Source: an uncultured Gammaproteobacteria bacterium (GTDB lineage Bacteria > Patescibacteriota > Microgenomatia > UBA8517). Taken from it: DNA of 64,000 nt. The notes beneath the pieces were generated by a model. That model did no database searches and was not told the origin of the DNA. It was given only the letters and a program-made list of their open reading frames with translations. Numbering within the stretch: the first letter of the stretch is position 1; every line of letters begins with the position of its first letter. The DNA lies in NCBI GenBank assembly GCA_964431555.1, contig CAYSJW010000005.1, positions 15,215 through 79,214 on the forward strand, read 5' to 3'. This document shows, piece by piece, positions 3,349 through 53,931 of this stretch. Made by a program: the position numbers and the translations under genes.

Positions 3349-4731
3349 TCAGATAACCTTCAAACTTTCAAGAAACTCTTTATTGTTTTCAGTTTTTGAA
3401 AGCCTCCCAAGCAAAGTTTCTGTTCTTTCATCCTCTGGTACCATATCAAGCATCCTCCTTAAGGTATATATATTTTGTAAAATATCCTTACCATATAAAA
3501 GCTCTTCCTGACGAGTACTACTTCTTGTTACATCAATGGCAGGAAATATTCTCCTCTCTGCAAGTCTTCGTATTAAGTGAAGTTCCATATTGCCTGTACC
3601 TTTGAATTCCTCATAAATTAGATCATCCATTCTACTTCCTGTATCTACAAGGCATGTACCAATAATCGTTAAGGAACCGCCGTTTTCAATTTTTCTAGCA
3701 GCACCAAAAAATTTCTTGGCGGGATATAAAGCTGCCGGATCGAAACCACCCGTCAATGTTCTCCCGGAAGTCGGAAGAGCAAGATTATATGCTCTTGCCA
3801 TACGGGTGATCGAATCAAGAACTATTACCACATCAAAACCATTTTCTACCAACCTCTTTGCTCTTTCCAAAGCTACTTCTCCTACAGCTGTTTGAGCTTC
3901 GGGAGGTTCATCAAAATTACTGGCTGCAACCTCGCCCTTTCCACCCGTAACGCTCCTCATGTGCATATTTATATCGGTTACTTCCTCCGGTCTCTCACCA
4001 ATAAGCACTGCCATTAAATGAACAGATCTTTCCTCCTTTCTTTTAATCCTACCTTCAATATAATTTTTAGCTATACCTGCAATAATATCCTTAATAAGCC
4101 ATGTTTTCCCAGCTTTAGGTGCCGAAACAATAAGCCCTCTTTGTCCAAACCCAATTGGTGATATAAGATCAATTACTCTGGTTGTCAAAGTTTCTTTATC
4201 AGTTGACAAAACAATATGCTCATTCGGATAAATTGCAACCAGATCGTCAAAAAAAGGTCTATCCCCGATCTCTTCAATAGGAACGCCATTGACTTTTTCG
4301 ACTTTTAAAAGCCCCCAGTAACGTTCATTTTCCTTTGGGCGACGGGCTTGACCTCCAACCCAATCACCCACCCTCAAACTAAATCTCCTTATCTGACTAC
4401 CAGAAATATATATATCCTTATCCGAAGAATGAAATTTAGGTCTCAACAAACCTGAACCCTCATTTGCTATATCCAAAACACCCTCCACATATTCAGTTGG
4501 AAGTCCAGAATCAGGCAAAACTCTGTCGTCCACCACTAAAGAACCTTTGTTTGAAGAGCTATACACCAAAGGTTTTTGTTCTATCTGAGACAAACTGTTA
4601 TCAGGTTGAGACAAAGAAACAGTCTTCTCCTCATTATTATCTTGGCTTTTCTCGACAAGTTCGCTATCTTCTTTACTAGCCTTAATATCCTTTATCCTGC
4701 GAGAAACCCTTTTGCTAGTTCTTATCGGCAT
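3349..4731 (-). CDS. rho: Transcription termination factor Rho.
   Basis: Motifs RFSLRVGDWVGGQARRPKENERY (RNA-binding CSD-like), GQRGLIVSAPKAGKT (Walker A) and DSITRMARAYN; 460 aa. Confidence 0.95.
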   Translation of the reverse strand: MPIRTSKRVSRRIKDIKASKEDSELVEKSQDNNEEKTVSLSQPDNSLSQIEQKPLVYSSSNKGSLVVDDRVLPDSGLPTEYVEGVLDIANEGSGLLRPKFHSSDKDIYISGSQIRRFSLRVGDWVGGQARRPKENERYWGLLKVEKVNGVPIEEIGDRPFFDDLVAIYPNEHIVLSTDKETLTTRVIDLISPIGFGQRGLIVSAPKAGKTWLIKDIIAGIAKNYIEGRIKRKEERSVHLMAVLIGERPEEVTDINMHMRSVTGGKGEVAASNFDEPPEAQTAVGEVALERAKRLVENGFDVVIVLDSITRMARAYNLALPTSGRTLTGGFDPAALYPAKKFFGAARKIENGGSLTIIGTCLVDTGSRMDDLIYEEFKGTGNMELHLIRRLAERRIFPAIDVTRSSTRQEELLYGKDILQNIYTLRRMLDMVPEDERTETLLGRLSKTENNKEFLESLKVI

Positions 4732-13741: not shown

Positions 13742-14650
13742 TTTCAAGCATATTTAGCCTTGGAGGATGGTTCCCCCAGATTCCCACAGATTTTAGACCG
13801 TGGTACTTAGGATACTTCTAGAGGTTGGTTTAGTTTCACATACGAGGCTTTCACTCTCTATGGCCTTCTATTCCAAGACGTTCTGCTACCAAACCAACTC
13901 CCACAATGAAGTCCTGCAACCCTCTTTCGTTCCCGAAGAAACAAAAGAGTTTAGGCTATTGCCGTTTCGCTCTCCACTACTAAGGCAATCACTATTGTTT
14001 TCTTTTCCTCACCCTACTAAGATGTTTCAGTTCGGATGGTTCCCTCCTCGCACCTTATAGGTACTCACAACAATCAACAATCAACCAACAGATATTGTAA
14101 GTTCCGCGGAGCGGAACACGTCGACTGTTAACTGTAGAGAGTACCTCTTAGGGTACGGGTAGTCGCTTTTGAAAGCAACTGGGTTTCCCCATTCGGACAC
14201 CGCCGGATCACTGGATCGTGGCTCCTACCCGGCGATTATCGGAAGCCTTGCCCGTCCTTCTTCGGTGCTTGAAACCAAGGCATCCACTGTCTGCGTTAGT
14301 AAAAGACTTTTACGACCTTGTCCGTAATAGCTTGTACAAAGTACACGCATACGGACCTACTTCCCCAAATTAAAAGATCAATATTGGGGATATCTTTCCT
14401 CTTTAGTTGTTAAGGAGCAAATCAATTTTAGATATAAGATCTAAGATACAGGATACAAGATTTAAGATTTCAGTTCAAAAAATCTTACTTCCTACTTCCT
14501 TCATCTTACATCCTAATTCCAACAACTAACCACTCACAACCCACAACTCACCACTTATTTCCCACTACCCATATATTCTTGATTCTTGGTAAACGGAGAC
14601 TCGTGATCAAAAAGCCAAATCACCAATCTCCGATTAGCAAAAATCAAATG

Positions 14651-14724
14651 TGGACCCGGAGGGAATCGAACCCTCTACCTCCTCATTGCAAATGAGGTGT
14701 TCAAACCTTGTAAACTTCGGGCCC
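14651..14724 (-). tRNA. tRNA-Ala (anticodon UGC).
   Basis: Reverse complement GGGCCCGAAGTTTACAAGGTTTGAACACCTCATTTGCAATGAGGAGGTAGAGGGTTCGATTCCCTCCGGGTCCA. The anticodon loop is TTTGCAA, with G3:U70 and an A discriminator. It lies upstream of 23S as expected for a spacer tRNA. Confidence 0.88.
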
Positions 14725-14954
14725 TAACCCCCACGGATCTTTTAATTTTTTTAATCTGCAAAACAAAAAAACCCGCTCATTAAGGCGGGTTGACTAAACA
14801 AAAGGAAACCTCTTTCACCCACAAAAGGGGGTATTAAGATTGGTTTCTTTGTGAATTTTCATTATTTTCATCAAGCAACTCGCCTTAAGGCAAGGACAAT
14901 TATATTACACTCTGTCAAGACAAGTCAACCACAATTTTTTTCAAAATATCTCCC

Positions 14955-15839
14955 CTAATTGATTGATTCTTGAATAATTTCTCTGGCTTGATTAATAGGT
15001 AATTTTTCGTTTTTTACATTAACCTCATCAGGCAAATTCTTTCCCCAAATTTCCAAAATTCTTTGTCTATCATTTTCATCCGTAACTAACTGCTTAAATC
15101 TCTCCCTTACAAAATTAACGAAAAAGTATGGATTAACTTCTGCAAAAGGATTTTCAATCCCATTTTCATATATCAATCCTAAAAGTCTCCTCTCATTTTG
15201 ACTAAATAAATCATTACCAATCTGATCCATGACTCTCATAAAAACACTAAATGGAGATTTTTGGTCTTCAGGCATGTATTTCGTTTCGTTTATAAGATGT
15301 TTGACAAATTGATTATACCTTTGCTTTTTTTCCTCGCCCAAATTGGAATTATTAATTAAAAATTCAGCAATAGCTTGACTCCTTTCTTCCGCAACTTTGC
15401 CTGTAAAAACATCTTTACCAGCAGTATAGTTGGGAAGGAAAGAAGGTTTAATATTGCCACTTCTTACCGAGAGAAAACTTATTATATTACCAGTATCGTG
15501 GGTATAGATTGCAAACATTATAGCTTCAGACAATTCATCTTCCGGAATAATTAAGTCTGGATGAGAATTATTCCACAAATCCAACGACTTATACAATTCT
15601 AACGGATCATCATCTCTAGAACATCCATCCATATACTTTTTTACAGCACCCACTACTGCTTCAATGTGGCGTCTATTATGAAAGGAGTCTTTATTATTCC
15701 ATACCTCGCTATCAAAAGTATCATGCCACGTAAGACATTTTTCCCAAATTTCCTGGGGCGATAATTGCTCCTTTAATCTACTAGTCTCATTCTCAACAAT
15801 TACAGTTTGAATTTCCTGATTTTCAAGAACATCTGTCAT
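14955..15839 (-). CDS. HD-domain (metal-dependent phosphohydrolase superfamily) protein encoded between tRNA-Ile and tRNA-Ala of the rRNA operon.
   Basis: A 294-aa ORF with H...HD motifs (FHNRRHIEAVV; AIYTHDTGNI) and later acidic residues. It is on the same strand as, and between, the two spacer tRNAs. Confidence 0.55.
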   Translation of the reverse strand: MTDVLENQEIQTVIVENETSRLKEQLSPQEIWEKCLTWHDTFDSEVWNNKDSFHNRRHIEAVVGAVKKYMDGCSRDDDPLELYKSLDLWNNSHPDLIIPEDELSEAIMFAIYTHDTGNIISFLSVRSGNIKPSFLPNYTAGKDVFTGKVAEERSQAIAEFLINNSNLGEEKKQRYNQFVKHLINETKYMPEDQKSPFSVFMRVMDQIGNDLFSQNERRLLGLIYENGIENPFAEVNPYFFVNFVRERFKQLVTDENDRQRILEIWGKNLPDEVNVKNEKLPINQAREIIQESIN

Positions 15840-15939
15840 TTAATAACCCTTGATATATATGATATATACTTCATTTTACCAACCTGGAAAATAAAATTAA
15901 AACAAATCTCCTTTATTTATAAAAATAGTTCAGTTTTTG

Positions 15940-16012
15940 TGGGCGGCCATGGAATCGAACCATGCACCTCTTACTTATCAGGTAAGCGTTCTAACCGATG
16001 AACTAGCCGCCC
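15940..16012 (-). tRNA. tRNA-Ile (anticodon GAU).
   Basis: Reverse complement GGGCGGCTAGTTCATCGGTTAGAACGCTTACCTGATAAGTAAGAGGTGCATGGTTCGATTCCATGGCCGCCCA. The anticodon loop is CTGATAA and the cloverleaf is canonical. Confidence 0.9.
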
Positions 16013-16181
16013 GAAAATATACTAAACTGTTTACTACAAATAAAATTTTACATTTATTTTTTTCCAAAAACAACCCACCACCCACTACTCACAACCCACA
16101 ACTCACTACCCACCACTCACAACCCACAACTCATATCTCACCCCCCCTTCTTTTACTCTGACTTAAATGTATAATTAGATT

Positions 16182-16880
16182 ATGGAAAAACTAACCACAC
16201 TTGCCCTCAAGCTTCCCAGAAACACTCAGGTTACGCCGGAAGCGGCAAAAACCTTCCTTTCTGCACTCATCCAAATTAACTTTATCTCTACCTTTAAAAA
16301 ACTTTTCGGCACTAAAAGAAAACCTTTAGCTTTAGAGATTGCTCTTATTAATCAACAAATCTACTTTTTGATAACTACGGATAACGAACTTATTCCCTTT
16401 ATAGAAACACAGATTACCTCAAATTACCCCTTGGCGATAATCGAAAAGACAAAAGACCCTCTTGAAGTAATTTCTTACAATTTAGTCAACATTTTCCTTC
16501 AAAAAGGAAACTATTATCCAATTGCCACATTTGAAAATTTTCAAGAGGTTGACCTACTCTCTTCAATACTTTCTGTTCTTGCGAAATCCGATCCAGACGA
16601 AGTCACAGTCATTCAATATGCACTTGAATCAACAAATAATTCTTGGCAAACAAAAGGAGCGGGCTTTGCAAAAAAAGGAACAAAAAACCCCGATGGTACT
16701 TATTCCCCAAGATTTGATTTAAATATCATAAACGAAAAAATTTCTTACCCAGGTTTCAGATGTAGCATCCGAATTATTAGTAATGCAAATAAAACCCTAA
16801 ATGAATTGTCAAGTGCCTTTGGTGTCTTTAATAGATCCGACGGAAATTACTTTATTTCTCAAAGACCTAATTTTTTTTAA
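16182..16880 (+). CDS. Hypothetical protein.
   Basis: A 232-aa ORF with ordinary composition for this genome; no recognisable motifs. Confidence 0.45.
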   Translation: MEKLTTLALKLPRNTQVTPEAAKTFLSALIQINFISTFKKLFGTKRKPLALEIALINQQIYFLITTDNELIPFIETQITSNYPLAIIEKTKDPLEVISYNLVNIFLQKGNYYPIATFENFQEVDLLSSILSVLAKSDPDEVTVIQYALESTNNSWQTKGAGFAKKGTKNPDGTYSPRFDLNIINEKISYPGFRCSIRIISNANKTLNELSSAFGVFNRSDGNYFISQRPNFF

Positions 16881-17027
16881 TAATAGGAGTATAAAAACTA
16901 AACCAACCGGAAAGTAAAATATACTCAGAACCTTCATCTATTACCAGCTTTTATCAGAGGTAATAATATAACACAAGGCAACTTCATCCCAAAAGGAAAA
17001 TGTTAACAAATTTTACCTTCTTATCCT

Positions 17028-18317
17028 TTATTTCCCACCCCTACCTTTTCCTCGCTCGGAACGAGGGGGATGGTTTCCTGGAGTCTGTCCACGCTCATCG
17101 TTCGAGGGGTTTCTATTATTACTATTTCCTGGATCGCACCCTTCAGGACCATTACCAATACCTTGATTACATTTTCGCTTATTTTCCCCAGGAGTTTCCG
17201 GTGTTGGCTCTAATGTTGGCTCCGGTGTTGGCTTAGGAGTAGACTCGGTAGTTGGAATGCCCTGTTGCGGACCATATTCCTCGCCTCTAGGGACCTCTCG
17301 CACAACACCACCTACAGGGACAAATCTCCCACCATCAACACCACAAGGACTCCCATTTGAATCCCCACTATCTTGATCTCCAATAACTTTTTCTAGCCCT
17401 CGGTTATAAAGGTCTGGAGTATTGGCAAGAGAGAAGACCTCAACCCTTAGACCTTGACCGTCAGTAACCGCCGCTAATAAAACGGGGTTTCCGGAATCTT
17501 TTCCACGAAAAATTTCTTCTTCCCTTCCGTTACCCGGTTTTTCCACACCTCCTCGAAAACTAACTCTTGCCACATTCTCAAGCTGAGGACCAAAAAGAGG
17601 ATAGCCCAGATATGTTTCATTGGTATCAAAGTCAGGACCAATAGTCCACCATTTCCCATCAACATTCTGGGGTTGAATAGCAAGATCGTCATAGGCTATC
17701 CTTTCAAATAATCTCCTTCTTTCTTCCTGAACAGCAGGATGAAAAGGATCTTTACCTTGTAAACTCAAGAAACCATCAACATAAGCAAGAAGCGCTTTAT
17801 CAATCTCTTTTGCTTCTACAATTGCCCAGCCTCTACTGTAACCGTCATTACCTTTTCTTAGCAAGTCACCTCTACCTAGCAAATCCGAAGTTCTCAAATT
17901 CGCCAAATCGTTAGGAGTAAAGCCAAGACCCTGCCCATCATTTTTAAGATCAAAATCCAAACCTCTTTCCCACAAAGCGCCCTTAACTCCCTTAGGACCT
18001 CCAACAGGAGCGGTTAATTGGTGAAACATTCTATCATGCATATTAATCCTAGCATCCACGGCTTCCCTCAGAGGATTCTCTCGGAGTTCCCCATTAAGAT
18101 CTTCTAGTCTTCCCCTAAGATATTTTCCAAACGTTTCAGGAGTTACAATATTTATACCACCATTTTCTACTGCTGCAAAATTAACACCCGCTGGATGGCT
18201 TGAAATCGGATATTCGCGAGACGCTTCTGGACCTTCAACGAATAGAGCACCACCAGCCACAGCTGCTAGTCTTAAAAAATCTCTTCGTGATAATCGTGGT
18301 AATCTGTCGACTGCCAT
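17028..18317 (-). CDS. Tat-signal (twin-arginine) exported hypothetical protein with a Pro/Thr-rich C-terminus, compositionally atypical (~48-50% GC).
   Basis: N-terminus MAVDRLPRLSRRDFLRLAAVAGGALF (S-R-R-x-F-L motif plus h-region). The C-terminal tail is TPKPTPEPTLEPTPETPG-rich. Local GC is clearly higher than the flanking ~33%. Confidence 0.6.
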   Translation of the reverse strand: MAVDRLPRLSRRDFLRLAAVAGGALFVEGPEASREYPISSHPAGVNFAAVENGGINIVTPETFGKYLRGRLEDLNGELRENPLREAVDARINMHDRMFHQLTAPVGGPKGVKGALWERGLDFDLKNDGQGLGFTPNDLANLRTSDLLGRGDLLRKGNDGYSRGWAIVEAKEIDKALLAYVDGFLSLQGKDPFHPAVQEERRRLFERIAYDDLAIQPQNVDGKWWTIGPDFDTNETYLGYPLFGPQLENVARVSFRGGVEKPGNGREEEIFRGKDSGNPVLLAAVTDGQGLRVEVFSLANTPDLYNRGLEKVIGDQDSGDSNGSPCGVDGGRFVPVGGVVREVPRGEEYGPQQGIPTTESTPKPTPEPTLEPTPETPGENKRKCNQGIGNGPEGCDPGNSNNRNPSNDERGQTPGNHPPRSERGKGRGGK

Positions 18318-18567
18318 ACCTTCCTTTTAATTGTCTTTACTATACCAAAAAGGAGGCTTCTTGTCAACTACAGGATGTTTTTTACTCAAAACAAGTATAA
18401 CTCACAACATGATATCTCTTAGGCATTTGCACAAGAGGTAGTACAAACTGCTCTTACCTCCTTGTCTTGCTGTTAAATCTTTACCCACCCTCCCCCAAGC
18501 TGTTTTTTATTTTCTTCCGAGAGGCTAGGCTATTTTCAGGCAAAAGTGTTATCATAAATAAAGCCCA

Positions 18568-19332
18568 ATGAATAACCACAAAAAGTTATTTATCTACACA
18601 ATTCTAATAACTACAGCCTTCTTTCTAACTCGACTAATAAATCTGACCTTACAACCTATTTTTTGCGATGAAGCTATTTACATAAACTGGGCCCAAAAAA
18701 CAGAGAACAATTTTAAGCTAAACGCTTTTTTGCCTTTAACAGATGGTAAAACTCCACTTTTTATGTGGGCAACTTCATTAAGCCTTAAAATTTTCAAAGA
18801 TCCTCTTTTTGCTGGAAGAATAGTCTCAGTTCTTGCCGGTTTTTCTTCTCTCATCGCCGCTTTTTTTCTCGGAAAAGAAATTTTCAAAACAAAAACAGGA
18901 ATTATCTCTGCTATTCTGCTAACTTTTCTGCCGTTTACTCTGTTTTTTGACAGAATGGCCCTAGTTGATTCAATGCTTGCCACTTTTTATCTTTGGTCCT
19001 TAGCGCTTGCCTTAAAAATATCTCAAAAGCCCAAGGTCAAAACAGCCGTTCTTTTAGGCTTAAGTTTGGGAGGAGGGATATTAACCAAAACCCCGGGAAT
19101 TTTTGCTTTTATCTCTTTACCCTTCATACTCATTGCAACCAACTTAAAAGATCTTAAAAAGGTAGCACTTAATCTTGGTCTTTCCGCTTTTATTGGTTTC
19201 TTTATTTTTAACCTGCTTAGAATTAGCCCCTATTTTGAAAACTTGTCAAAAAGAGACTCTGGGTATTACTTTCCCATAAGACATATCCTAGAAAACCCCA
19301 CAAATCCACTAACTGGAAATACAATAGGGTAA
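18568..19332 (+). pseudogene. N-terminal fragment of a GT-C fold (GT39/GT83, ArnT/PMT-like) membrane glycosyltransferase, truncated by IS insertion.
   Basis: Polytopic membrane N-terminus with FCDEAIYINWAQ (DE..Y loop motif of PMT/ArnT-type transferases). The ORF ends after 254 aa with a TAA lying inside the IS inverted repeat (GGGTAAAGT), whereas family members are ~450-550 aa. Confidence 0.5.
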
Positions 19333-20184
19333 AGTCTAATTATTCGGACCTTAAATGTTGATTTAATAACATAAATAAGCGTTTTTCTTGCTCTTTGAAA
19401 TTTTAATTTCTGTGATTGTATCGCCAGATGTATTCTCCAAGATATAAAGGCAGTCTTTGTTGACAAATTCCACCTCTAGCCGCTAGTTTCCTTTTCAAAT
19501 ATCCCCAAAATCCTTCAAGGCCATTGATGTGATTTCCTTTTTTATTAGAATACTCTTTTTTACTATGATCAACAAGTCGATGGACATAACCTTTGGATGC
19601 TAATCCAGTGTATCCTCGCCAAGTATCAGAACAGATGGTTGAACCTTTGCTAACTTGTTTTTCAATTAAGGGTTGTAAATCTCTGGCTTCTGTATCAGGA
19701 ACAATCTCAGCGAATATCTTTCCTTCCCGGCACAAAATACCAAAGACTGGTTGTTTAATAGTCCCAAAACCCCTGCGATTTTTACCATATTTTATGCAGT
19801 CTTTTTGCTTTCTATTCTTCATTTGACCACCCAAGTAAGTCTCATCTACTTCTACTATTCCCGAAAAGATGTCTGGCACATCTTTAGTCATTACTATTCT
19901 TAACAGAATTAATAATTTCAGAAGTTTGTATTTGGAAATGTTAACCCTTTCAAGGATAGTGTTGGTTGAATGTTCTAACACAAACTCAGAAATTACTTTT
20001 TTAACAACCCTTTTATTAAGTCTTAGAAGCTTCTTTTTCAGAGTAAATGACTTTCGACAAACTAAACAACGAAGACGTCCATCTTTTAATCTCCAGAACC
20101 TTTTGGTATTACTACATTGTAAACATTTCGTCATATTCCTAATGTGATTTTATCCCATTAGGTCTGAAATATTGAACTTTACCC
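19327..20184 (-). mobile_element. IS1595-family insertion sequence (~858 bp) with ~24-bp terminal inverted repeats.
   Basis: Left end GGGTAAAGTCTAATTATTCGGACC (19327..19350). The right end reverse complement is GGGTAAAGTTCAATATTTCAGACC (20161..20184). It encloses transposase ORF 19403..20134. Confidence 0.8.
19403..20134 (-). CDS. IS1595-family (ISXO2-like) DDE transposase.
   Basis: N-terminal zinc ribbon CLQCSNTKRFWRLKDGRLRCLVCRK and a C-terminal region ...HINGLEGFWGYLKRKL...YLGEYIWRYNHRN typical of DDE_Tnp_IS1595. Confidence 0.85.
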   Translation of the reverse strand: MTKCLQCSNTKRFWRLKDGRLRCLVCRKSFTLKKKLLRLNKRVVKKVISEFVLEHSTNTILERVNISKYKLLKLLILLRIVMTKDVPDIFSGIVEVDETYLGGQMKNRKQKDCIKYGKNRRGFGTIKQPVFGILCREGKIFAEIVPDTEARDLQPLIEKQVSKGSTICSDTWRGYTGLASKGYVHRLVDHSKKEYSNKKGNHINGLEGFWGYLKRKLAARGGICQQRLPLYLGEYIWRYNHRN

Positions 20185-20446
20185 TATATTATGAAAGCTT
20201 TCTAGTCAATGATAACTAAAATATTCAAAACATATCTTCAAAGCACCCCTTGTTAGAAGAGAAAAAAATTTCAAGCGGGATCGTGGGACAAAAAACCTCC
20301 TTGTAAAACTCTTGGTGGAGGGTACAGAGATGGTAAAAAATAGCAGTTAGCAATTAGCAGTTAGTTGTTAGTTGTTAGTAGTTAGTAGTTAGCAATTAGC
20401 AGTTGGCGGTTGGTAATTAGCAGTTGGTTTTTAGTAAAATGCAAAT

Positions 20447-20719
20447 ATGAGCGGTTTTGAGGATTTGAGGATTTATAGACTTTCTTTGGAGGGCTGCAAG
20501 ATAATTTACAAGATTATTTTAAAAGACCCTATTAAAAAAGATTACTCTTTAGTTGATCAAATAAAAAGGGCAGTTATGTCGATTGTCGCTAATATTGCTG
20601 AAGGTTATGGACGCTACACTAAAAAAGACCGCTCTCAGTTTTTAACATATTCAATTGGATCTTGTAATGAAGTACTAGCCTTTTTGGATATAATCAATAC
20701 TATTTGTAATATTGAATAA
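20447..20719 (+). CDS. Four-helix-bundle protein (TIGR02436, '23S rRNA intervening-sequence protein' family), short form.
   Basis: LRIYRLSLEGCKIIYKI...AVMSIVANIAEGYGRYTKKDRSQFLTYSIGSCNEVLAFLDI has the NIAEG signature. It is a paralog of the ORF inside the 16S IVS. It is flanked by inverted heptamer arrays at 20341..20427 and 20811..20880. Confidence 0.75.
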   Translation: MSGFEDLRIYRLSLEGCKIIYKIILKDPIKKDYSLVDQIKRAVMSIVANIAEGYGRYTKKDRSQFLTYSIGSCNEVLAFLDIINTICNIE

Positions 20720-21109
20720 TATTGATGTATCAAAAGAAAAGAAAGTTTTTCTTTCTCTAGGAAAACAAATCTATTCATTCCGTAAAGCCCTTCAGAATTC
20801 ATAGTATTAACTCACTGCTTACAACCAACTGCCTACTACCTACTACCAACTACTTTACTGCTATCTGCCCACTGCCTAACGTATTACCGTTTCTCTACCC
20901 TCTATCAAGGGAAAATTACGCCAAGGTATTGGCGAATCAATCCAACAAAGCCCTACGGCGGAGTTGGAAAATACCCGGAGCTGGCCGAACCAGTTTTAAA
21001 TCCTCTTTCTGTTTGCCAAGAGCTGGCACCAAGGTCGCTAAGCGATCGCGCAGCTCCCCACTAGTAAAGTGGCAATTGAAAGAAGAAAACCAAGCAATAG
21101 GAGGTTTGA

Positions 21110-21531
21110 TAATGAACACCAAACGGATGTTTTTACTGGGTATAGTTGCCCTGTTGGTGGTCGCATTCGCGACCGGTACGGCATTGTCAAGCGGAGCCGC
21201 CGACATTACCGTTGTTTATGAGGACGACTATATGGTCGTCTATCAAGACGGTGATTTCGGTAACCGTATTGCGCTGAATAAAGCGGGAGGCGTGGATGCC
21301 TACTGTCCGTGCGAGGACGTCTGTCCTTTAACCGCACAGGGTGCTCCGGCAACCGCAACGCAACCGCCGCAGACAACGGCAACCAGCCAACCCCCATATA
21401 ACGGGGTGTGGATTCATCACGAATCCCAGGGCGTTGGCGACCAAAGCTGGACGCGCTGCATGCCACCGAGTGCCTGGAATGGACACAGTCCCCACGAAGG
21501 GGACTGGCTCGGTGGAGGTTGCTACCGCTAA
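21110..21531 (+). CDS. Secreted Cys-rich hypothetical protein in a GC-rich islet.
   Basis: MNTKRMFLLGIVALLVVAFATGTALSSGAAD signal peptide, then PATATQPPQTTATSQPP and several Cys/Trp. The region 20880..22080 is ~52% GC, and the tracked ORF begins further upstream at 20929. Confidence 0.5.
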
Positions 21532-22185
21532 TCGTCATTCGGGGTAACCCCAACACTAAGTCAGTTGGAAACTGACGACAAGGGTTACCCCACCCCCTCT
21601 CCCTTGTACCAAGTTTTACTTGGTGAGAGGCTCATCGATCGATCGAAAGATGGGTAAAACAAGGAAAGCGGGGCTCGCGAAATGGTAATTTTGCCCTCAA
21701 GACGCTTGCGTCTTTCGTCTTACGCAGACGATTAATGAGTGGCGATTTAGCCAATTTGCGAGTATGCGGACTGTTTATGAGTTGTGTTTTGATTTTAGGA
21801 CGAAACGATAACCGTAAGGTTATCAAATCAAGTAGCCAAAAAGCTACAAATCCAAAAAATCAAATCCAACCCCCAAAATAGTCCCCCCGCAATAGTTAGT
21901 TTTCGACCAACAGTCGAACTGAAGAGATCTTGTCCGATAATTATCGGAATGCGATCGAAACTATTAAACAAATTAATTAGTGTGTCGTAACTGATCCCAG
22001 CACAGAACTTACTTGCTCCCGAGTACTACGTGCTCGCGTCACAAGAGCGTTTATGCGGGACAAGTGAGACCGAAAGGTTGAAACTAAAAAAATAGTTTAG
22101 TATTTAGTTATTAGTGGTTAGTATTTAGTTTAAATTACACCTTAACAATTTATTCATTGACCAAAAATCACGGAAGTGGTTTAAT

Positions 22186-22671
22186 GTGGATATGGGAAAA
22201 GGCAAAGTGTTGACCAAAAAAGATGCTGAATTTTTAAAACAGGAATTCAAAAGTGTCTTTGCAACCAAAGAAAACCTTAAGATTTTAAAAAAAGAAATCG
22301 CCAACAGGGTGACAAGGTCTGTTGTTCCTCAAGTTACAAGGTCAGTGGTTCCTGAAGTTACAAGATCTGTCGTCCCTGAAGTAGCTAAGGCTGTCGTTCC
22401 TGAAATAGCGAAGGCTGTTGTTCCTGAAGTAACTCAAGCAGTTATCCCTCAAATTAAATCCGTCGTAAAGCTTGTAATTTCTGGGGAGTTAACAGAACAA
22501 GAAGAAAAGTACGAAAAGAAACTTGAAGAATTTAAGAGCGAGTTCTTTGACAAGGTTGACCTGATTTTAAAAGAAATAACAACGGTACAGGAAGAAAGAC
22601 CTTTGATTGAAAGTCGACTTGAAGCCCTTGAAAAAATTCATCCGCAAGGTAAACACGTTCTTTCATCCTAA
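22186..22671 (+). CDS. Tandem-repeat / coiled-coil hypothetical protein.
   Basis: Seven tandem 27-bp (9-aa) repeats VTRSVVPQ/VTRSVVPE/VAKAVVPE..., followed by a charged predicted coiled-coil C-terminus. Confidence 0.55.
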   Translation: MDMGKGKVLTKKDAEFLKQEFKSVFATKENLKILKKEIANRVTRSVVPQVTRSVVPEVTRSVVPEVAKAVVPEIAKAVVPEVTQAVIPQIKSVVKLVISGELTEQEEKYEKKLEEFKSEFFDKVDLILKEITTVQEERPLIESRLEALEKIHPQGKHVLSS

Positions 22672-23028
22672 TCACCCTTTAAAACCAAATCCCGTGTGTT
22701 TTCCTACCCGCAATGCCTGAAGCATAGCCAATGAAAACTGTCTGTGCAGGATTTGAAAAACGATTTTAATGGACCTGCACTAATTATTCAACTTGCTACA
22801 AATAAAAAAATTATTTAAATTTGATTGAGTAGGTTTATAATTAAAACATAGCTACCCAAAAGCGTGGGGGTAACCAAAGGTAAAAAACATAACCTAAAAA
22901 ATTATGTTACCTCTAAAGCAAAGTCCTGTACCGAATGGTATGGGACACTCCGCCGTCCTTGGGTAAAATCAAGGAAAGCGGAGAAACCAAAGGTTGCCTC
23001 CACACTTTTGGGGATCCAAGATTAGGAT

Positions 23029-23679
23029 TTAGTTTTGCGAAGATAAAATTGACTCAATTTTATTTCTGTTTTTTTCATTATCATCAGCATTAACTACTAA
23101 AATTACTTTTTCTATTTTTGAATCAGGTCTATCTTTAAAATAGTCTTTGATACCTCCAATAATTGATAATAATCGCGGCCTAAAAGTTTCCGGAGTAATC
23201 TCTCCAAATAAAGGAACTGCCACCGTCTTCACTTCAGCAGTACTTTCAGCCACCTCCAAAGAATTTCCAACTGCCAACCTCACTGGATCTTGACTTTTAC
23301 TTTCTCCAGTATTTGATATATTTGTATGAATTATTTTCTTAACCGAAGATCCTTCTAATCCCACCCCAGTTGCCACCGAATATCCCGGAGGAATATGAAC
23401 TTCACCTTTTAAGCCTATTTCTCTTAAACTTCCTTTAAAATGACTTTCTGCCTCTTTCGCCTTTCTAAATGGATCATCCCCAAATTTGATAATCAGTAAT
23501 TCTCCTTCCAAAGAAGTACTAAAAAAACTCCCATCATACGGGCAAACTAAAGCATCAGCTGTAACTTCATCTATTCTTCCAAAACTAATACTAACCTTAT
23601 CCCTCCAAATAGGAGCCTCTAAACGAATTGAACCATCTCCCGTCTCTCCGTTTCCCATACTATATTCTCTCACATTCAC
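23029..23679 (-). CDS. Hypothetical protein.
   Basis: 216-aa ORF with coding-like composition and no secure family assignment. Confidence 0.4.
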   Translation of the reverse strand: MNVREYSMGNGETGDGSIRLEAPIWRDKVSISFGRIDEVTADALVCPYDGSFFSTSLEGELLIIKFGDDPFRKAKEAESHFKGSLREIGLKGEVHIPPGYSVATGVGLEGSSVKKIIHTNISNTGESKSQDPVRLAVGNSLEVAESTAEVKTVAVPLFGEITPETFRPRLLSIIGGIKDYFKDRPDSKIEKVILVVNADDNEKNRNKIESILSSQN

Positions 23680-24222
23680 CTAAATTCACAAAATCACCAA
23701 TTCCTCAACACCGGGAGTTGATCAGCTTCCAACAATGGGTCTTTTAGATAAAGTGAGTTGTTGGTTGTTAGTTGTTAGTTGTTAGTTGTTAGTGGTTAGT
23801 GGTTAGTTATTAGTTGTAAGAGGTATGGAATGAGGAGTGAGTGGTGGGTAGTGGGTAGTGGGTTGTGGGTTGTGAGTAGTGGGTGGTGAGTTGTGATAAA
23901 TAGATATAGGAAGTTAGAAGTTAGTAGTTAGTATCTGGGAGTTGAGGAAAATAAACCCAAAACACAAAATTCAAAATTGTAATAAAAATTTAAAAATTAT
24001 AATTATTAATATAAAGTAGAATCATTAACTATTAACCATAAATTAATAATAATTTACAGGTTTTGAAGTTTAGTATAAAGCTTTCAAGATTTAGCTTTTG
24101 AGACACAAATATTCTCCATAATAAAAGACCAACGCCATATAAAGATTCTGAATAGCAATTTTATTCACTACAAAGTATTTTGACTGGAAAAATAGTTCAA
24201 TACTATAATATCAAATTACAGC

Positions 24223-24792
24223 ATGAATCCGGAAAGAAAAAGGCAAACAACCTTAATTTCCACAGAGCTTGGGTTCACAGTATTATGGTTATATCTCGCA
24301 TGTTTAAGTGGTTGTGAGGAAAATCGACAACAACTCTCAACATTAACTCCTCCTCAACCACCAGGTGAATCATCCAAGGGTCGAGACCTTCTTCCAACTC
24401 TCCCATCAGTAAAGCCAGAAACAAGAATGGAAGAACTAGTCAACCAAATTGAGGAAGAAGGCTATAATTGTGAGCCGATTCCAAAAGGTAGTTGGCTAAC
24501 CCAAGAACTAAGAAAAAGAGGAGCTCCAGGGATCGATGAGGGACCATACAAAATTATCCGAAGAGGTGGTAAAGTAGAAACCTTTGAAACTTATGATCAG
24601 CTTCCTAACCTAGTTTATCCAGGTGAGCAATTTTGCATCAAAGAAAATGGCAGTTCCTCGATTATCCCCGGAAAAAATCATGGAGTTATTTTTGAATGGA
24701 ATAATATGCCTTTTGTAAGAACACAAAATAGGGCTTTCCAACAAAAAAGTCAAGAAATAACATCTAGGCTCCGCGCAAAACAAAGGTTCTAA
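24223..24792 (+). CDS. Putative lipoprotein.
   Basis: N-terminal h-region followed by the lipobox LACLSGC. 189 aa. Confidence 0.5.
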   Translation: MNPERKRQTTLISTELGFTVLWLYLACLSGCEENRQQLSTLTPPQPPGESSKGRDLLPTLPSVKPETRMEELVNQIEEEGYNCEPIPKGSWLTQELRKRGAPGIDEGPYKIIRRGGKVETFETYDQLPNLVYPGEQFCIKENGSSSIIPGKNHGVIFEWNNMPFVRTQNRAFQQKSQEITSRLRAKQRF

Positions 24793-25079
24793 AATCTCAA
24801 AAAATCCCCTAGTCAAATTTATATTTTGACATCCAAAATATGACTGGAAGCGGTCCCCGTTTTATCACAGTCAAAACGGCGAACTTAAAAACTGGGTGCT
24901 ATCACCCCTCTTTCGCAAAAAAGCAAAAAGAGGGTTCCCGTGAGAACTCCTTAGAAAGGAGGTGATCCATCCGCTCCTTCCAGAACGGATACCTTGTTAC
25001 GACTTAATCCTCATCGCTGGTTTCACCTTCCCCTCCGACTCGGAGGGTTCGGGTGCCCCCAACTTTGCTGACTTGACGG

Positions 25080-25951
25080 ATTGCACTTCATCGAAGTTAT
25101 CGTGCGTTCCCACTAAGCGAGCGGCTTTCCCGCACTTAGCGAGCCGTAATGCTTATTCATCTCCAGCTTCAATTTCCTAATAAAAGAGAGTTCTTTTTCA
25201 GAGAGCTTACGCACATCCTGCCTTCCCTTAACTATCTCGGCTATTTGGCAAAAAGCATTAAAACTTTCCGCTTTATAGCCCAAGAGTTTATGTCGTTTGA
25301 AAAAGGGTATTATGACATTGTAAATATCATCCCTTTTTGTAAATTCAAAGACCCAAGCAGGAAGACGACCCACGCGCCTAGCACTCTTTTGATAAACAGT
25401 CCCTACGTTGAAAAATTGCTGGACCTTTAAAAGCAATGGTTTATTTCCTTCAGCTTGAGTAATGAAAAATCGTAAATCGATTCTGTTATCAGCTCGAATA
25501 GATACAAGGAAACATCCCTCACCTTCTGTCAATCCAACAACATATGAAGCTGGAAGCATTACGTATTTCCCTTCGATAATGCCAGTATACGAATGTTTTC
25601 AATATACTGTCAATTATCTACTATGGAAATGCTGACTTCCTAAAAGGCAATTACTTCGTTCCTTTTAGGATCTCCGTGGGTCATCATATATTCTATTCCC
25701 GGCATGAACAAATTGCTTTTACAAACTGGCTTCCTTCTGACCGCCCAGCAGAAGTCGCCAAGCATTTTCATTTTGTCCCTGCCGTTTGCCTCAGGCCCTC
25801 CGTTCTATCGGTTACCCGTAAAAGCAAAGTTTATACTTTGCAATAGAACTGCCAATTTTTTGGCTACATTTCAAGTTGGTAAAGGTTAACCATCAAGAAA
25901 TGGTAAGATTTTAACTTACTAGAATATATGACTGCCACGCGCGCATTTATT
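25080..25951 (-). mobile_element. Group I intron in the 16S rRNA 3' domain, inserted after GTACACACCGCC, carrying a LAGLIDADG ORF.
   Basis: 16S collinearity stops after ...GGGTCTTGTACACACCGCC (plus 25952) and resumes at CGTCAAGTCAGCAAAGTTGGGGG (plus ~25079). The ~870-nt insert contains ORF 25113..25559. Confidence 0.85.
25113..25559 (-). CDS. LAGLIDADG-family homing endonuclease (intron-encoded, in 16S).
   Basis: MLPASYVVGLTEGEGCFLVSIRADN carries the LAGLIDADG-type motif VVGLTEGEGCF. 148 aa. Confidence 0.9.
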   Translation of the reverse strand: MLPASYVVGLTEGEGCFLVSIRADNRIDLRFFITQAEGNKPLLLKVQQFFNVGTVYQKSARRVGRLPAWVFEFTKRDDIYNVIIPFFKRHKLLGYKAESFNAFCQIAEIVKGRQDVRKLSEKELSFIRKLKLEMNKHYGSLSAGKPLA

Positions 25952-26414
25952 GGCGGTGTGTACAAGACCCGAGAACGTATTCACCGCGACTTTGCTGATT
26001 CGCGATTACTACCAATTCCGCGTTCATGAGGGCGAGTTGCAGCCCTCAATCCCCACTGAGAAGCCGTTTGATGGGATTAGCTCCGCGTTACCGCTTGGCA
26101 ACCCATTGTCGGCTCCATTGTAGCATGCGTGTAGCCCTGGACATAAGGGCCATGCTGACTTAACGTCATCCCCGCCTTCCTCCAAGTTTAACTTGGCAGT
26201 CCCGTATGAACAATCTAACATACGGCAGGGGTTTCGTTCGTTACCCCACTGAAGGGAACACCCCACGGCACGAACTTACGATAGCCATGCAACACCTGTC
26301 CTACCATCCAACTTTCGAAGGATCTGCTACTATTTCTAGTAACATAAACGGTAGGATGTCAAGTCCAGGTAAGGTTCTTCGGTCCGTCTCGAATTAAACC
26401 ACATGCTCCACTGG

Positions 26415-26446
<32 letters not shown>

Positions 26447-27359
26447 TAAACTTGCGTTCGTACTCCCCAGGCGGCTCGCTTAACGCGTTAGCTTGCGCCC
26501 CACGCCCAAAGGCGTAGGGCTAGCGAGCATAGTTTACGGCTAGGACTACAGGGGTCTCTAATCCCTTTCGCTCCCCTAGCTTTCGTTCCTCAGCGTCAAA
26601 CAGTTCATAGTTACCTGCCTTCGCCCTCGGTGTTCCTTGCGATATCAACGGATTTCACCCCTACACCGCAAGTTCCGGTAACCCCTAAATGTTTCGATTT
26701 CTTCAGTATTACCTCCCTTTCCGAGGTTAAGCCCCGGTCTTTGAAAGATAACTTAAAGAAACGCCTACGAACTCTTTACGCCCAATAAATCCGGACAACG
26801 CTTGCACCCTCTGTATTACCGCTGCTGCTGGCACAGAGTTAGCCGGTGCTTATTCTCCGTTCGGTCTCCCTCACGGCAAAAGTGGTTTACAACCCGAAGG
26901 CCTTCATCCCACACGCGGCGTCGCGGCGTCAGACTTTCGTCCATTGCGCACGATTCCCAGTTGCTGCCACCCGTAGGTGTATGGGCCGTGTCTCAGTCCC
27001 ATTCTGGGGGGTCACGCTCTCACGTCCCCTACCCGTCGTAGCCTTGGTAGGCCATTACCCTACCAACTAGCTGATAGGCCGCAGGCTCCTCCTTCGGCGG
27101 ACAGTTACATCCTTTGCTGCGTAGCAGCCAACCATCAACTAACAACAATCAACTCACAACTCTTATATTAGTTGTCTTTTAATTGTTGAAGCTCACAAGA
27201 TGAGCGTGTTGAAAGCTCGCTGCTGCGCAGCGTATGCGGTATTAGCCCCGCTTTCGCGGGGGTATTCCCCACCAAAGGGTAGATTCCTACGTGTTACTCA
27301 GCCGTTCGCGACTATCCGCAGGACAGAACATTCAACAATAAACAAGTAACTGGTTACAA

Positions 27360-27722
27360 CTAACTCTTCTTAAGATACTTCGAAAAACCTCCAAGTTGAT
27401 CAGCAATCTGCTTAGTTTCCTTTATCAACTCATTTTTTAAAGTAGAACTTATAAGTTTAGATTCAAATGCTATATCAATTCCAGCAGTAGTTTCATTTAT
27501 AGAACCTAATGAGTTGTTTAAATACATATTCAATTCTTTATCAGAGTCTTTGCCAGATCCTTCTGCGATATTAAGAACTACAGAGAGACTACTCCTTCTT
27601 ATCTGATCCGCTAATTCCCTATGTTCTCTCGGGAAAGTTTTACTTATCTCAACAACTGACAAATAAAATCTTTTTGCATCTTTATAAACTTTAAACCTCA
27701 TAAATCGAAATGTTTTATCCAT
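27360..27722 (-). CDS. Four-helix-bundle protein (TIGR02436, rRNA intervening-sequence protein) encoded inside an IVS in the 16S rRNA V1 region.
   Basis: MDKTFRFMRFKVYKDAKRFYLSVVEISKTFPREHRELADQIRRSSLSVVLNIAEGSGKDSDKE has the family-defining NIAEG motif. The ORF sits ~70 nt into the 16S, between inverted flanks GGTCCGCAGGAC / GTCCTGCGGA that form the IVS stem. Confidence 0.85.
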   Translation of the reverse strand: MDKTFRFMRFKVYKDAKRFYLSVVEISKTFPREHRELADQIRRSSLSVVLNIAEGSGKDSDKELNMYLNNSLGSINETTAGIDIAFESKLISSTLKNELIKETKQIADQLGGFSKYLKKS

Positions 27723-28157
27723 ATTCTTTGTTAATAATTAATAGTTACCAGTCGCAAGTTACAAGTTGATCTGTTCGGTCCTGCGGACCGTCCCACTTGC
27801 ATGCTTAAGGCACGCCGCTAGCGTTCGTCCTGGGCCAGGATCAAACCCTCAAATAAGTGACGAGTTTATACCCTAGTTGCGTATAAACAGCAACCAAAGT
27901 GTAGTTCGTCTATACGCCGGGTGTCAAATGACACCCGATCAGGTACCGAATGGCACCTGACTTCCAGTCATATTTTGAATGTCAAAGAGCAAAAATCAAA
28001 AAACCCACCAGATGGTGGGTTAATTTTAAGTTCCCGAATTAACGGAAAACCATCTGGCTCTTATTTCTTCATAAACTAAACTCAAATCAACTAAATGTAT
28101 TGAGCATATATAGTATATCAAAAAAATCAAACGAGTCAATTATAAATTTTTAGAATT

Positions 28158-29225
28158 TTAAATATCACCACTTCCAAAAAGTTTCTCAATGACACCAGCT
28201 CTCCAAAGCTGATGCCTAAGCGTTGTTGTTATACTCTGACCTATACTATTAACTGAATCATCACAATTACCTATCGAGGATGTTTTTGCCTTCAAAACAC
28301 TTGTAGAATGACACAAAATTTCGGCAAAATTAGTTACAAACAAAGGTAACCCTCCAGTTAAAGCCAAAAATTCATATTCACCTTTTATTCTCTTAATAAC
28401 TTCCCGAGGAGAACAACTTTGCTTTTCTGCAATATGCAAAGCATATCCCCAAAGATTTGGAATGCCCAATTTTTTATCCAAAGGGTACCCAACTACATCA
28501 TCCCGAACTTTTAAATTCATCTCCGAAAAATGAAGAGTTGCAATTCTTGAGAAAGTTAGTACCGAACTATAACTTTCCATCATGGGACAAACAACACTTC
28601 CACCACTTATTGTAAAAAGTGAGTACTTCCTTTCAATATCTTCAGTACCTTCACACACCTTTAAAAAATCCATTCCTACCTTATCCAGCACAGAGGGCAC
28701 AACCAAAGATAAACAACCCGCAACATATATGGCACTATCTAATTCGACAAATTTTCTCCACTCATCAGAAGAAAAATCCCCTCTTTTTTGGGAAAGAATT
28801 AAGAAATCACCAATCAAAGCTTGAACTACTTTTGCTTCTCTAGAATCATCCCCATATTTCTCATTAAAATTCCTAATTTCCTTTTCCAACCAACTAGAAG
28901 TTTTTTTCTCAAGACTCAATAAACCCTCCTCTTGATTTGGCAAACAACCATTTTCTCTCCTTAATTTTGCCGACACTCCAATATCCGCATATTCATTCGC
29001 CGAAATTAAAACAGGGGCAAGATTCCCAAGCAGTTCAAGTCCCCTATTTTTCCCTTCTTTTTTTACTTCCTCCGGAAAGACCATGTTTATAGCATTAAAT
29101 ATTGCAAGCGCAGTTCTAGGTATCTCAACCTTTTTACCTTCCAAAATTAGTCTTAAATAAATTCCAATTGATTCAAACGAAGAGTTTATGGCAGATCGAG
29201 GCGAAATTTGTATTTTTCTTTCCAT
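28158..29225 (-). CDS. Hypothetical protein (355 aa) immediately upstream of the 16S leader.
   Basis: Long ORF with coding-like composition and no recognised motifs. Confidence 0.5.
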   Translation of the reverse strand: MERKIQISPRSAINSSFESIGIYLRLILEGKKVEIPRTALAIFNAINMVFPEEVKKEGKNRGLELLGNLAPVLISANEYADIGVSAKLRRENGCLPNQEEGLLSLEKKTSSWLEKEIRNFNEKYGDDSREAKVVQALIGDFLILSQKRGDFSSDEWRKFVELDSAIYVAGCLSLVVPSVLDKVGMDFLKVCEGTEDIERKYSLFTISGGSVVCPMMESYSSVLTFSRIATLHFSEMNLKVRDDVVGYPLDKKLGIPNLWGYALHIAEKQSCSPREVIKRIKGEYEFLALTGGLPLFVTNFAEILCHSTSVLKAKTSSIGNCDDSVNSIGQSITTTLRHQLWRAGVIEKLFGSGDI

Positions 29226-53025: not shown

Positions 53026-53931
53026 CTAACCCAAGAGGTTTTTCAAAGTTTCCGGTATTTTGTCAGCCAAATCATCCGAATTAAAATTAACTCCCACCTT
53101 CTCATATAGTTCATCAGCTGCCTTTTTAATAATAAATGAAGCGCTCGCGGCAGCCAGAAATGGCTCATTTTTGGCCAAAAGAGCAACCGTTAATCCCGCC
53201 AAAATGTCACCGGTTCCTCCCTTTGTCAATCCTGCATTACCGCCTTTTACCAATGCACAATCATTTGGTGAGGCAACAATTGTTTCCGGACCCTTCAGAA
53301 CTATCGTACAACCATATCTCTTAACCATCTCCCCTACAATTTTTGAGTTTTGATCTGTCATTTTGATATTTGATTTTTGAATTTTGACTTTGAACAACAT
53401 CTCAAATTCCTTAGTATTTGGTGTCAGAATCGCTTTTTCCGGTATCCATTCTACATCCATCACCTGCAAACTTCCCGCGTCAATTACCCAACGCTTTTCT
53501 GGAAATTGCTTTAATAACCTTTGAGTTATATTCCTTGTCTTTCTCCCCTCAGAATCATAACTTCTTATTTCAGAACTTCCATTTTGATTTTTGATTTCTG
53601 ATTTTTGATTTTCCCTCCTGTATCGCATAAATCCCGGTCCTATCAAAACAGCGTCGGATTTTTTAATATATGCATCAACATCCTCCCAAGGTACCCAGAT
53701 AAAAGACATTAACTCTGACTTAATCCGATTTGTAACTTCTCGAAAGCTTTCTTCAGGTGATGCAAAAAAAACCATATCCACAATACGCGAGGCTACTTTT
53801 AACGACAAAATCGGCGCTCCATGGAAAAGTTTCGACCCACCAATAATTGTTACCTGTCCATTTTGTTCACCAGATGATAAAGGATGAGGTTGATATAATT
53901 TTTTTAATTCATTTGGATCAAAGGTTCTCAT
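53026..53931 (-). CDS. nnrD: ADP-dependent NAD(P)H-hydrate dehydratase (YjeF C-terminal domain).
   Basis: GGSKLFHGAP...VIDAGSL...KGGNAGLTKGGTGDILAGL matches the YjeF_C carbohydrate-kinase motifs. It contains two in-frame low-complexity inserts encoded by TTTTGAT repeats (53341..53392, 53582..53612). Confidence 0.8.
   Translation of the reverse strand: MRTFDPNELKKLYQPHPLSSGEQNGQVTIIGGSKLFHGAPILSLKVASRIVDMVFFASPEESFREVTNRIKSELMSFIWVPWEDVDAYIKKSDAVLIGPGFMRYRRENQKSEIKNQNGSSEIRSYDSEGRKTRNITQRLLKQFPEKRWVIDAGSLQVMDVEWIPEKAILTPNTKEFEMLFKVKIQKSNIKMTDQNSKIVGEMVKRYGCTIVLKGPETIVASPNDCALVKGGNAGLTKGGTGDILAGLTVALLAKNEPFLAAASASFIIKKAADELYEKVGVNFNSDDLADKIPETLKNLLG

Follow-up and report, generated by a model that had tools for sequence, protein, structure and literature searches.

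The C-free tract at positions 23742 to 23934 (plus strand, 193 nt) of the window, that is, of the whole 64,000-nucleotide stretch analyzed (positions 15215 to 79214 of contig C5 in genome G000), is an ordinary member of a known repeat class, linked here to REP and S23p elements. The tract probably belongs to a degenerate heptanucleotide satellite dispersed through the genome, of which it is a solo copy joined to a REP palindrome, with its G-quadruplex (G4) motif as a by-product. We infer that the array has no locus-specific regulatory role.

In the scheme proposed here, a satellite with the unit D-G-T-K-R-G-T, of the STRR or G-rich heptamer SSR kind, would populate a CPR-type genome of ~1 Mb, with the present array directly 3′ of a decayed REP palindrome. 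The number and type of units would drift by slippage, multi-unit duplication, and point change, a course suggested by periodicities of 7, 14, 21, and 28 nt and by comparison with paralogous copies. A run of four GGG-bearing units would have arisen at this locus, giving a G4-competent motif as a by-product, in an array that would lie upstream of the neighboring lipoprotein promoter and most likely not be transcribed with that gene. The G-rich heptamer class is hereby extended to an ultra-small CPR-type genome, where noncoding DNA is scarce, and heptamer arrays are physically tied to REP palindromes and S23p hairpin elements, including within the 16S rRNA gene. These ties favor an origin as selfish or mobile DNA over a role in regulating particular genes.

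Extent, copies, and distribution of the heptamer arrays

The tract is the longest plus-strand run without C (T75 G73 A45), and given the C frequency of the window (0.225), a run of this length would begin at any particular position with a probability of ~5e-22. An earlier note on this DNA had placed it at 23742 to 23935 and given its length as 194 nt; the absence of C holds, while the length is 193 nt, as position 23935 is a C. The heptameric organization described in that note was borne out by Tandem Repeats Finder, which resolved three period-7 blocks in a mosaic of degenerate D-G-T-K-R-G-T heptamers, all read on the plus strand. An AGTTGTT/GGTTAGT block at 23756 to 23817 (8.9 copies, 89% matches), also recovered in the strict array scan described below, is followed by an AGTGGGT/TGTGAGT block at 23831 to 23896. 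This middle block is also periodic at 14 and 21 nt (period 21 was scored over 23831 to 23896) and has an AGTGGGT core at 23836 to 23888 (7.6 copies, 82% matches). The third block, AGTTAGT, spans 23912 to 23933 (3.1 copies).

The locus sequence was found 100% identical in three further assemblies (ENA ERZ27245602, JGI 3300010284, and Logan SRR5216256), whose samples may be related and whose populations are possibly not independent. The contigs of two of the three break within the array. Because of this identity, the tract is not an artefact of one assembly, and an assembly artefact was ruled out. A coding array was likewise ruled out, as TAG, TGA, and TAA are abundant and the 7-nt period is out of frame. 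An Rfam search of 23500 to 24400 returned no known RNA family at an E value of ≤1.

Phase-variable contingency SSRs are near-perfect repeats that lie within an ORF or between the −35 and −10 elements and vary in copy number among strains. The array was rejected as a candidate for this class: its blocks reach 82 to 89% matches, it lies at least ~245 nt upstream of the predicted −35 element, and it is identical in three assemblies. A recently slipping contingency locus is also disfavored because the units are degenerate, with 30 distinct units among the 138 found in the genome.

These 138 units make up 19 arrays that were recovered by a strict scan of the genome (at least four in-phase C-free units with GT at positions 2 to 3 and 6 to 7); the same scan was negative in each of three shuffled genomes. 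C5, which holds 8% of the genome, carries 13 of the 19 arrays, and all 19 are confined to five contigs. All 19 are intergenic as judged by crude ORF calls. In the unit profile D-G-T-K-R-G-T, positions G2, T3, G6, and T7 are fixed at 95 to 99% and the other positions vary; GGG occurs in 31 of the 138 units (22%). A null for run lengths based on block shuffling was uninformative, as the blocks retain the composition of the arrays. Some constraint in addition to neutral decay is suggested by the persistence of G-T at four of the seven positions in a degenerate array of 193 nt that lacks C altogether.

A BLAST search of the locus against its own genome matched 25 places. The paralogue at C23:35190-35310(−) is identical at 76 of 86 nt (88%) and shares both the order of units and the nonrepeat 3′ flank, while that at C5:31270-31360(−) is identical to the AGTGGGT block at 57 of 65 nt. 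On the strength of these matches, the arrays are homologous copies and not independent local expansions. First described as specific to this locus, the tract is instead a single copy of a repeat dispersed in the genome.

A second heptamer family, TTTTGA(A/T), was observed in the window at 53339 to 53391, 53582 to 53612, and 57683 to 57713, and further at C5:4324-4845, C13:12517, C21:198, and C23:47727; it forms the arms of another S23p element. Its word is that of the TTTTGAA repeats of Nostoc and the TTTTGAT repeats of the Vibrio ctx promoter.

Among 120 further genomes of the family, a five-unit strict pattern was present in only three, with one or two matches each, compared with 20 here. 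In one relative from the same family (G060), the reversed pattern, (TGDDTGD)x5, matches 21 times and the forward pattern does not match at all; in this different lineage, a different heptamer word has been expanded. Genomes of the closest genus hold mosaics of other heptamer types. Because the forward pattern is rare in the family and other heptamer words occur in relatives, the unit type is lineage specific, whereas mosaics of heptamers in general are not. Four successive GGGTDGT units (the xGTGGGT type) occur in at least 120 stretches when all species genomes are considered. Hosts among the matches listed include cyanobacteria (several stretches per genome, in similar mosaics), Flavobacteriia, Planctomycetota, Acidobacteriota, and Helicobacter heilmannii, as well as other CPR (Uhr-, Gottesman-, and Saccharibacteria MAGs). 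This breadth across phyla fits the over-representation of heptamer SSRs reported previously (PMC4692102).

G-rich heptamer SSRs were described by Rehm et al. (2015, PLoS One; PMC4692102) as GGGAATC in Xanthomonas and GGGGA(C/T)T in Nostoc PCC 7120. The present arrays resemble them as tandem heptamers with a G3 tract, variable in unit number and sequence, and G4 competent where four such units adjoin. A G3-bearing tandem unit is present in the AGTGGGT block at 23836 to 23888, and the strong noncoding bias and dispersal of that class recur in the 19 intergenic arrays on five contigs. The genome-wide preference for four units does not recur, however, as four adjacent G-tract units were found at this locus only (1 of 19 arrays). 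The repeats here also differ in being degenerate (30 types, GGG in 22% of units), in their unit GGGT(A/T/G)GT, in showing no G4 enrichment, in residing in an ultra-small CPR-type host, and in being linked to REP palindromes and S23p elements. Furthermore, the flagged copy lies between divergent genes, a position that was under-represented in that study (PMC4692102).

Several types of heptamer unit also abut in intergenic mosaics at many loci in cyanobacterial STRRs, much as three blocks do here and 30 unit types do across 19 arrays. STRR heptanucleotides of Calothrix PCC 7601 and Anabaena have units such as CCCCAGT, TTGGTCA, and CAACAGT, which carry C and G on one strand; in contrast, the present arrays are strictly C-free. 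At three cyanobacterial loci (L038, L055, and L092), mosaics of AGTGGGT, AATGGGT, and AGTGGAG are followed by complementary CAACCAT arrays. The cyanobacterial STRRs are cited, as reference 39, in the study of Rehm et al. (PMC4692102).

A third comparison is offered by the TAACTGA direct repeats of marine Beggiatoaceae, Cyanobacteria, and Bacteroidetes, which occur in two to six copies within a few nucleotides of start codons (MacGregor 2015; PMC4679880). These too are intergenic heptamer direct repeats, with a patchy phylogeny that suggests horizontal spread. S1, Csp, or CsrA was proposed to bind them, and a regulatory effect was proposed for Beggiatoaceae (PMC4679880). In contrast, the flagged array is 289 to 481 nt from the start codon, and neither a cold-shock-domain protein nor CsrA was found in the 99.5%-complete genome, so that both were rejected as binders of the array. 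In Nostoc, deletion of other heptamer repeats reportedly alters reporter output, and a heptamer-binding factor has been proposed (bioRxiv 10.1101/2022.06.06.494920). By analogy with this reporter precedent, the array may have a cis effect on expression.

REP palindromes and S23p elements

A degenerate REP-like module at 23704 to 23740 (plus strand) lies directly 5′ of the C-free tract. Its 7-1-7 palindrome (core at 23706 to 23720) has the stem CAACACC-G-GGAGTTG, with one arm mismatch, and is followed by an ATCAGCTTC tail, a partial stem copy (CAACA), and GGG. The module is present in 12 genome copies, all of them intergenic. Among the five matches to the Y1 transposase family (Y1_Tnp, RAYT-like) in the genome, the gene at C15:96996-97265 has on both sides palindromes that match this architecture exactly but carry another stem (CCACTTC-G-GAAGTGG, ATTAGCTT, CCAC, and GGG). 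Palindromes around the Y1 match at C15:599 have a similar tail and a different stem, and a palindrome with a different stem is also found beside the match on C33. As its architecture equals that of palindromes flanking RAYT genes, the module is a probable REP of the RAYT-associated kind. Readings of the palindrome as an integron attC site, parS, or dif were dropped, since RAYT-flanking REPs share its architecture.

The module resembles REP/RAYT systems and BIME-like mosaics in its 7-1-7 palindrome, conserved tail, multiple intergenic copies, RAYT-flank architecture, and clustering with other repeat modules. It differs in that the CAACACC stem was not found beside any of the five Y1_Tnp matches, three of which are bracketed or flanked by palindromes of the same or a similar architecture with other stems; thus, no cognate RAYT for this stem type was found among them. 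To our knowledge, heptamer arrays have not been described as a component of REP mosaics. At least four REP types in the genome were observed to share the architecture of a 7-1-7 or 8-1-8 stem, an A[T/G]TAG[C/G]TT tail, and a partial stem copy, with stems that differ (C15:96740/97513, C15:216/1082, C33:82580, and 12 further copies of the TCAACCCG type). Three of these types bracket or flank different RAYT-like genes, which indicates that several RAYT/REP lineages coexist in this 1-Mb genome.

Of the 12 REP copies, four have a strict array no more than 60 nt away, whereas the mean under the null is 0.22 (P < 0.0005). The junction, in which the REP is followed by a T-run, AGAAAGAGTGAGTT, and the array, is common to the flagged locus, C23:35338, and C23:44771, showing that REP and array were copied between intergenic sites as a composite unit. 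The contexts of paralogous copies differ (divergent, convergent, or after tRNA genes), which argues against a fixed role of this composite as promoter or terminator. Five of 120 family genomes contain single copies of the REP, and in two cases (G000 and G103) a tRNA gene is directly upstream of a REP copy.

Heptamer arrays also form the arms of hairpins around S23p genes. The genome contains five matches to PF05635 (23S rRNA IVS protein, S23p), four of them on C5, and at three loci the gene is bracketed by inverted heptamer arms of 20 to 55 nt that are 73 to 85% complementary. A free-standing IVS-like element in the window (20341 to 20854) holds a 90-aa PF05635 ORF (20447 to 20719) between 37-nt arms at 20398 to 20434 and 20818 to 20854 (76% complementary), in which a TAGCAGT/TAGTTGT array faces an inverted TACTACC array. 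The genes at C5:4407-4703 and C13:10249-10563 have arms of 50 to 55 nt (TTTTGAA type) and 20 nt, respectively. A fourth intact copy, at 27360 to 27722 of the window, is inside the 16S rRNA gene. S23p rRNA intervening sequences are thus similar to the present case in that hairpins with heptamer-array arms enclose PF05635 genes here, one within the 16S; the flagged array, in contrast, has neither a partner arm nor an enclosed gene.

It is unlikely that the array is a leftover or partnerless arm of such an S23p hairpin element. Besides the inverted arms at three loci, this reading draws on the concentration of PF05635 matches (four of five) and of strict arrays (13 of 19) on one contig and on the resemblance of the AGTTGTT block to the left arm of the element 3.3 kb away. 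However, the only inverted partner within 19500 to 28500, 3.3 kb distant, is a short array located in the 16S gene, and no PF05635 ORF or remnant adjoins the array. Moreover, most arrays are solo and biased in orientation, and random loss of arms would not yield such a bias. For want of a local inverted partner arm, we regard the flagged array as solo. A reverse transcriptase- or DGR-type origin of the arrays, considered because S23p is Avd-like, is disfavored, as the genome has no RVT_1. RNase III is present in the genome.

Genome setting, strand polarity, and Rho

The host genome (995,585 bp in 35 contigs, 33.9% GC, estimated 99.5% complete) is of the CPR/Patescibacteria type; genomes of relatives range from 0.4 to 1.5 Mb. 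GC skew is about ±0.2 per contig. The array itself is set in a ~9-kb block between the 16S and 23S rRNA genes that has near-zero skew and genes in mixed orientation, most of them orphans, together with an IS1595-family transposase (19403 to 20134).

As had been stated earlier, the genes on either side of the tract are divergent. The orphan ORF at 24223 to 24792 (plus strand) encodes a putative lipoprotein of 189 aa with a signal peptide and an L-S-G-C lipobox; it matched no Pfam family and had no relative among metagenome contigs. The orphan ORF at 23029 to 23679 (minus strand) comprises 216 aa in the ORF call and 209 aa in an independent gene call, which starts at the ATG at 23658; it matched no Pfam family and had no homologue in 40 relatives. 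An exact search of metagenome contigs with the flanks retrieved no orthologous locus.

A sigma-70-like promoter match (TTGACT-18-TATAAT, 24180 to 24209, plus strand) with 11 of 12 consensus positions, assigned by consensus match only, ends 14 nt before the ATG at 24223, and a very AT-rich interval of 245 nt separates it from the array. The earlier placement of the tract in the 5′ untranslated region (5′ UTR) of the lipoprotein gene is at odds with this arrangement, in which the array is ~250 to 470 nt upstream of the predicted transcription start. Because the best promoter match, a consensus match only, is downstream of the array, the array is most likely outside the 5′ UTR.

In 18 of the 19 strict arrays, one or both adjacent genes have the C-free strand as their sense strand. 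Local GC skew is followed by 15 of them, and the remaining four, the flagged locus included, still follow a neighboring gene. When the set was widened to 26 G-rich array loci, 11 proved to be sense and five antisense to both neighbors; two of these five are paired right arms of S23p elements. The polarity tendency is real but confounded with skew and with the co-orientation of genes. A cross-phylum orientation test on 120 loci was confounded as well, as the stop-free C-rich strand yields spurious ORFs. Array polarity is best explained by extreme strand compositional bias or by tolerance of one orientation, and a designed function is less likely. One possibility is that Rho would be loaded on untranslated RNA that is rich in C and free of G, which would leave a single orientation tolerated.

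A rut site consists of at least 70 nt of untranslated RNA that is C-rich, G-poor, and unstructured. If the antisense RNA of the array were rut-like, the array could act as a strand-selective loading pad for Rho, or insulator, that stops 16S read-through or attenuates the 216-aa gene. Arrays in the sense direction would be invisible to Rho, which would account for the polarity. A minus-strand RNA of the array would be 193 nt long, without G, with 73 C (38%), and unstructured; Rho is encoded at 3349 to 4731 of the window. The excess of arrays sense to both neighbors, with two of the five antisense cases explained as S23p arms, and the adherence of all four skew-discordant arrays to a neighboring gene are in line with this reading, as is the position, to the right of the array, of the sole site near the 216-aa gene that resembles a minus-strand promoter (24035 to 24008, 9 of 12 consensus positions). 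The minus-strand 16S rRNA gene ends ~1 kb upstream of the array. We nevertheless consider a role in Rho loading quite unlikely, since the polarity is confounded with extreme GC skew and gene co-orientation, five antisense exceptions exist, and terminator-like hairpins are already present downstream of the 16S 3′ end.

A more general version, in which polar C-free arrays in many bacteria would be one-way transcription insulators, here shielding the 216-aa gene from read-through of the intron-laden 16S gene, strikes us as decidedly improbable. Rho may ignore sense G/U-rich RNA and load on antisense, G-free, C-rich RNA. If true, this would provide a function for a repeat class that has lacked one since 1990.

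The G-quadruplex motif and the rRNA region

The G4 string G3-N4-G3-N4-G3-N4-G3 quoted in the earlier note is present in the tract, at 23846 to 23869 (plus strand), and conforms to the canonical (G3+N1-7)x4 motif. The G4Hunter check suggested there gave a 25-nt maximum of 1.56 at 23845, which exceeds the usual G4 thresholds. Similarly, when G-quadruplexes were allowed in ViennaRNA, a three-layer G4 appeared in the minimum-energy RNA fold, with a gain of ~7 kcal/mol. The comparison with a genome-wide expectation, also suggested there, showed no enrichment: five canonical motifs were counted against 4.25 ± 1.95 expected from first-order Markov simulations of the whole genome, so that the motif is neither enriched nor depleted.

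Only one of these five motifs, that at 23846 to 23869, sits within a heptamer array. Correspondingly, (G3N≤7)x4 is found in 1 of the 19 strict arrays, the flagged one; with loops of up to 12 nt, it is found in three. With the motif confined to one array and GGG to 31 of 138 units, G4 potential does not characterize the repeat family. The description of the tract as G4 prone stands in silico for this motif. The C23 paralogue has only three adjacent G3 tracts. Compared with it, the flagged locus has either one AGTGGGT unit more or a few substitutions; as the ungapped and the one-unit-indel alignments score equally, slippage by one unit is unprovable as the sole source of the fourth G-tract.

A G4 in nontemplate DNA or in RNA that modulates the lipoprotein gene or its divergent neighbor is very improbable as the function of the tract. 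The canonical motif, its G4Hunter score, and the predicted RNA fold are compatible with such a regulator, and comparable heptamer repeats form G4s in vitro (PMC4692102). However, the motif occurs in a single array, is not enriched in the genome, is upstream of the predicted promoter, and lacks a fourth adjacent tract in the nearest paralogue. In addition, Rehm et al. identified no regulatory role for their repeats, which were under-represented between divergent ORFs (PMC4692102). The G4 interpretation of the tract is weakly supported, and the motif is most likely a local accident of the repeat units, incidental rather than a regulatory device that has been conserved. Caution is warranted, since shuffling of repeat units can by chance produce a textbook G4 motif at a single locus.

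That the array is a periodic binding site for a nucleic acid-binding protein, with G-T fixed every 3 to 4 nt, is hardly credible: conservation of G2, T3, G6, and T7 at 95 to 99% amid variable positions, and effects on regulation attributed to other heptamers, as reported for Nostoc (bioRxiv 10.1101/2022.06.06.494920) and proposed for Beggiatoaceae (PMC4679880), would agree with it, but Csp and CsrA are missing from the 99.5%-complete genome, the arrays take very different positions relative to genes, and their expansion is lineage specific.

Several further observations were made in the window. The 16S rRNA gene at 24953 to 27850 (minus strand) extends over ~2.9 kb, of which Rfam aligns only 25898 to 27399, and contains three insertions. 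Near its 5′ end is an IVS of ~450 nt with the PF05635/S23p ORF noted above (27360 to 27722) and stem arms at 27310 to 27330 and 27772 to 27792. The second insertion, at ~27125 to 27222, is a hairpin of ~95 nt with heptamer-type arms. The third, of ~870 nt (~25079 to 25950), follows CACACCGCC and includes a LAGLIDADG endonuclease at 25113 to 25559. The whole gene is enclosed by a 26-nt inverted repeat (24825 to 24850 and 27961 to 27986; 96% complementary), which is probably the pre-16S processing stem and whose 3′ arm comes to within ~35 nt of the convergent lipoprotein ORF at its stop codon.

The 16S and 23S genes are on one strand and ~10.6 kb apart (14310 to 24953). Between them are mostly orphan genes in mixed orientation, the IS1595-family transposase, the free-standing S23p element, and two tRNA genes. 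A GC skew of ~0 in the 20- to 24-kb region suggests that inserted or inverted DNA lies inside a former rRNA operon. In the same region, a 161-aa ORF at 22186 to 22671 (plus strand), with no convincing Pfam family, contains five tandem 24-nt coding repeats (8 aa, VTRSVVPE-like) at 22312 to 22430. Elsewhere in the window, an ATP-dependent DNA ligase of the archaeal/eukaryotic type with N, adenylation, and C domains is encoded at 48344 to 50110 (minus strand).
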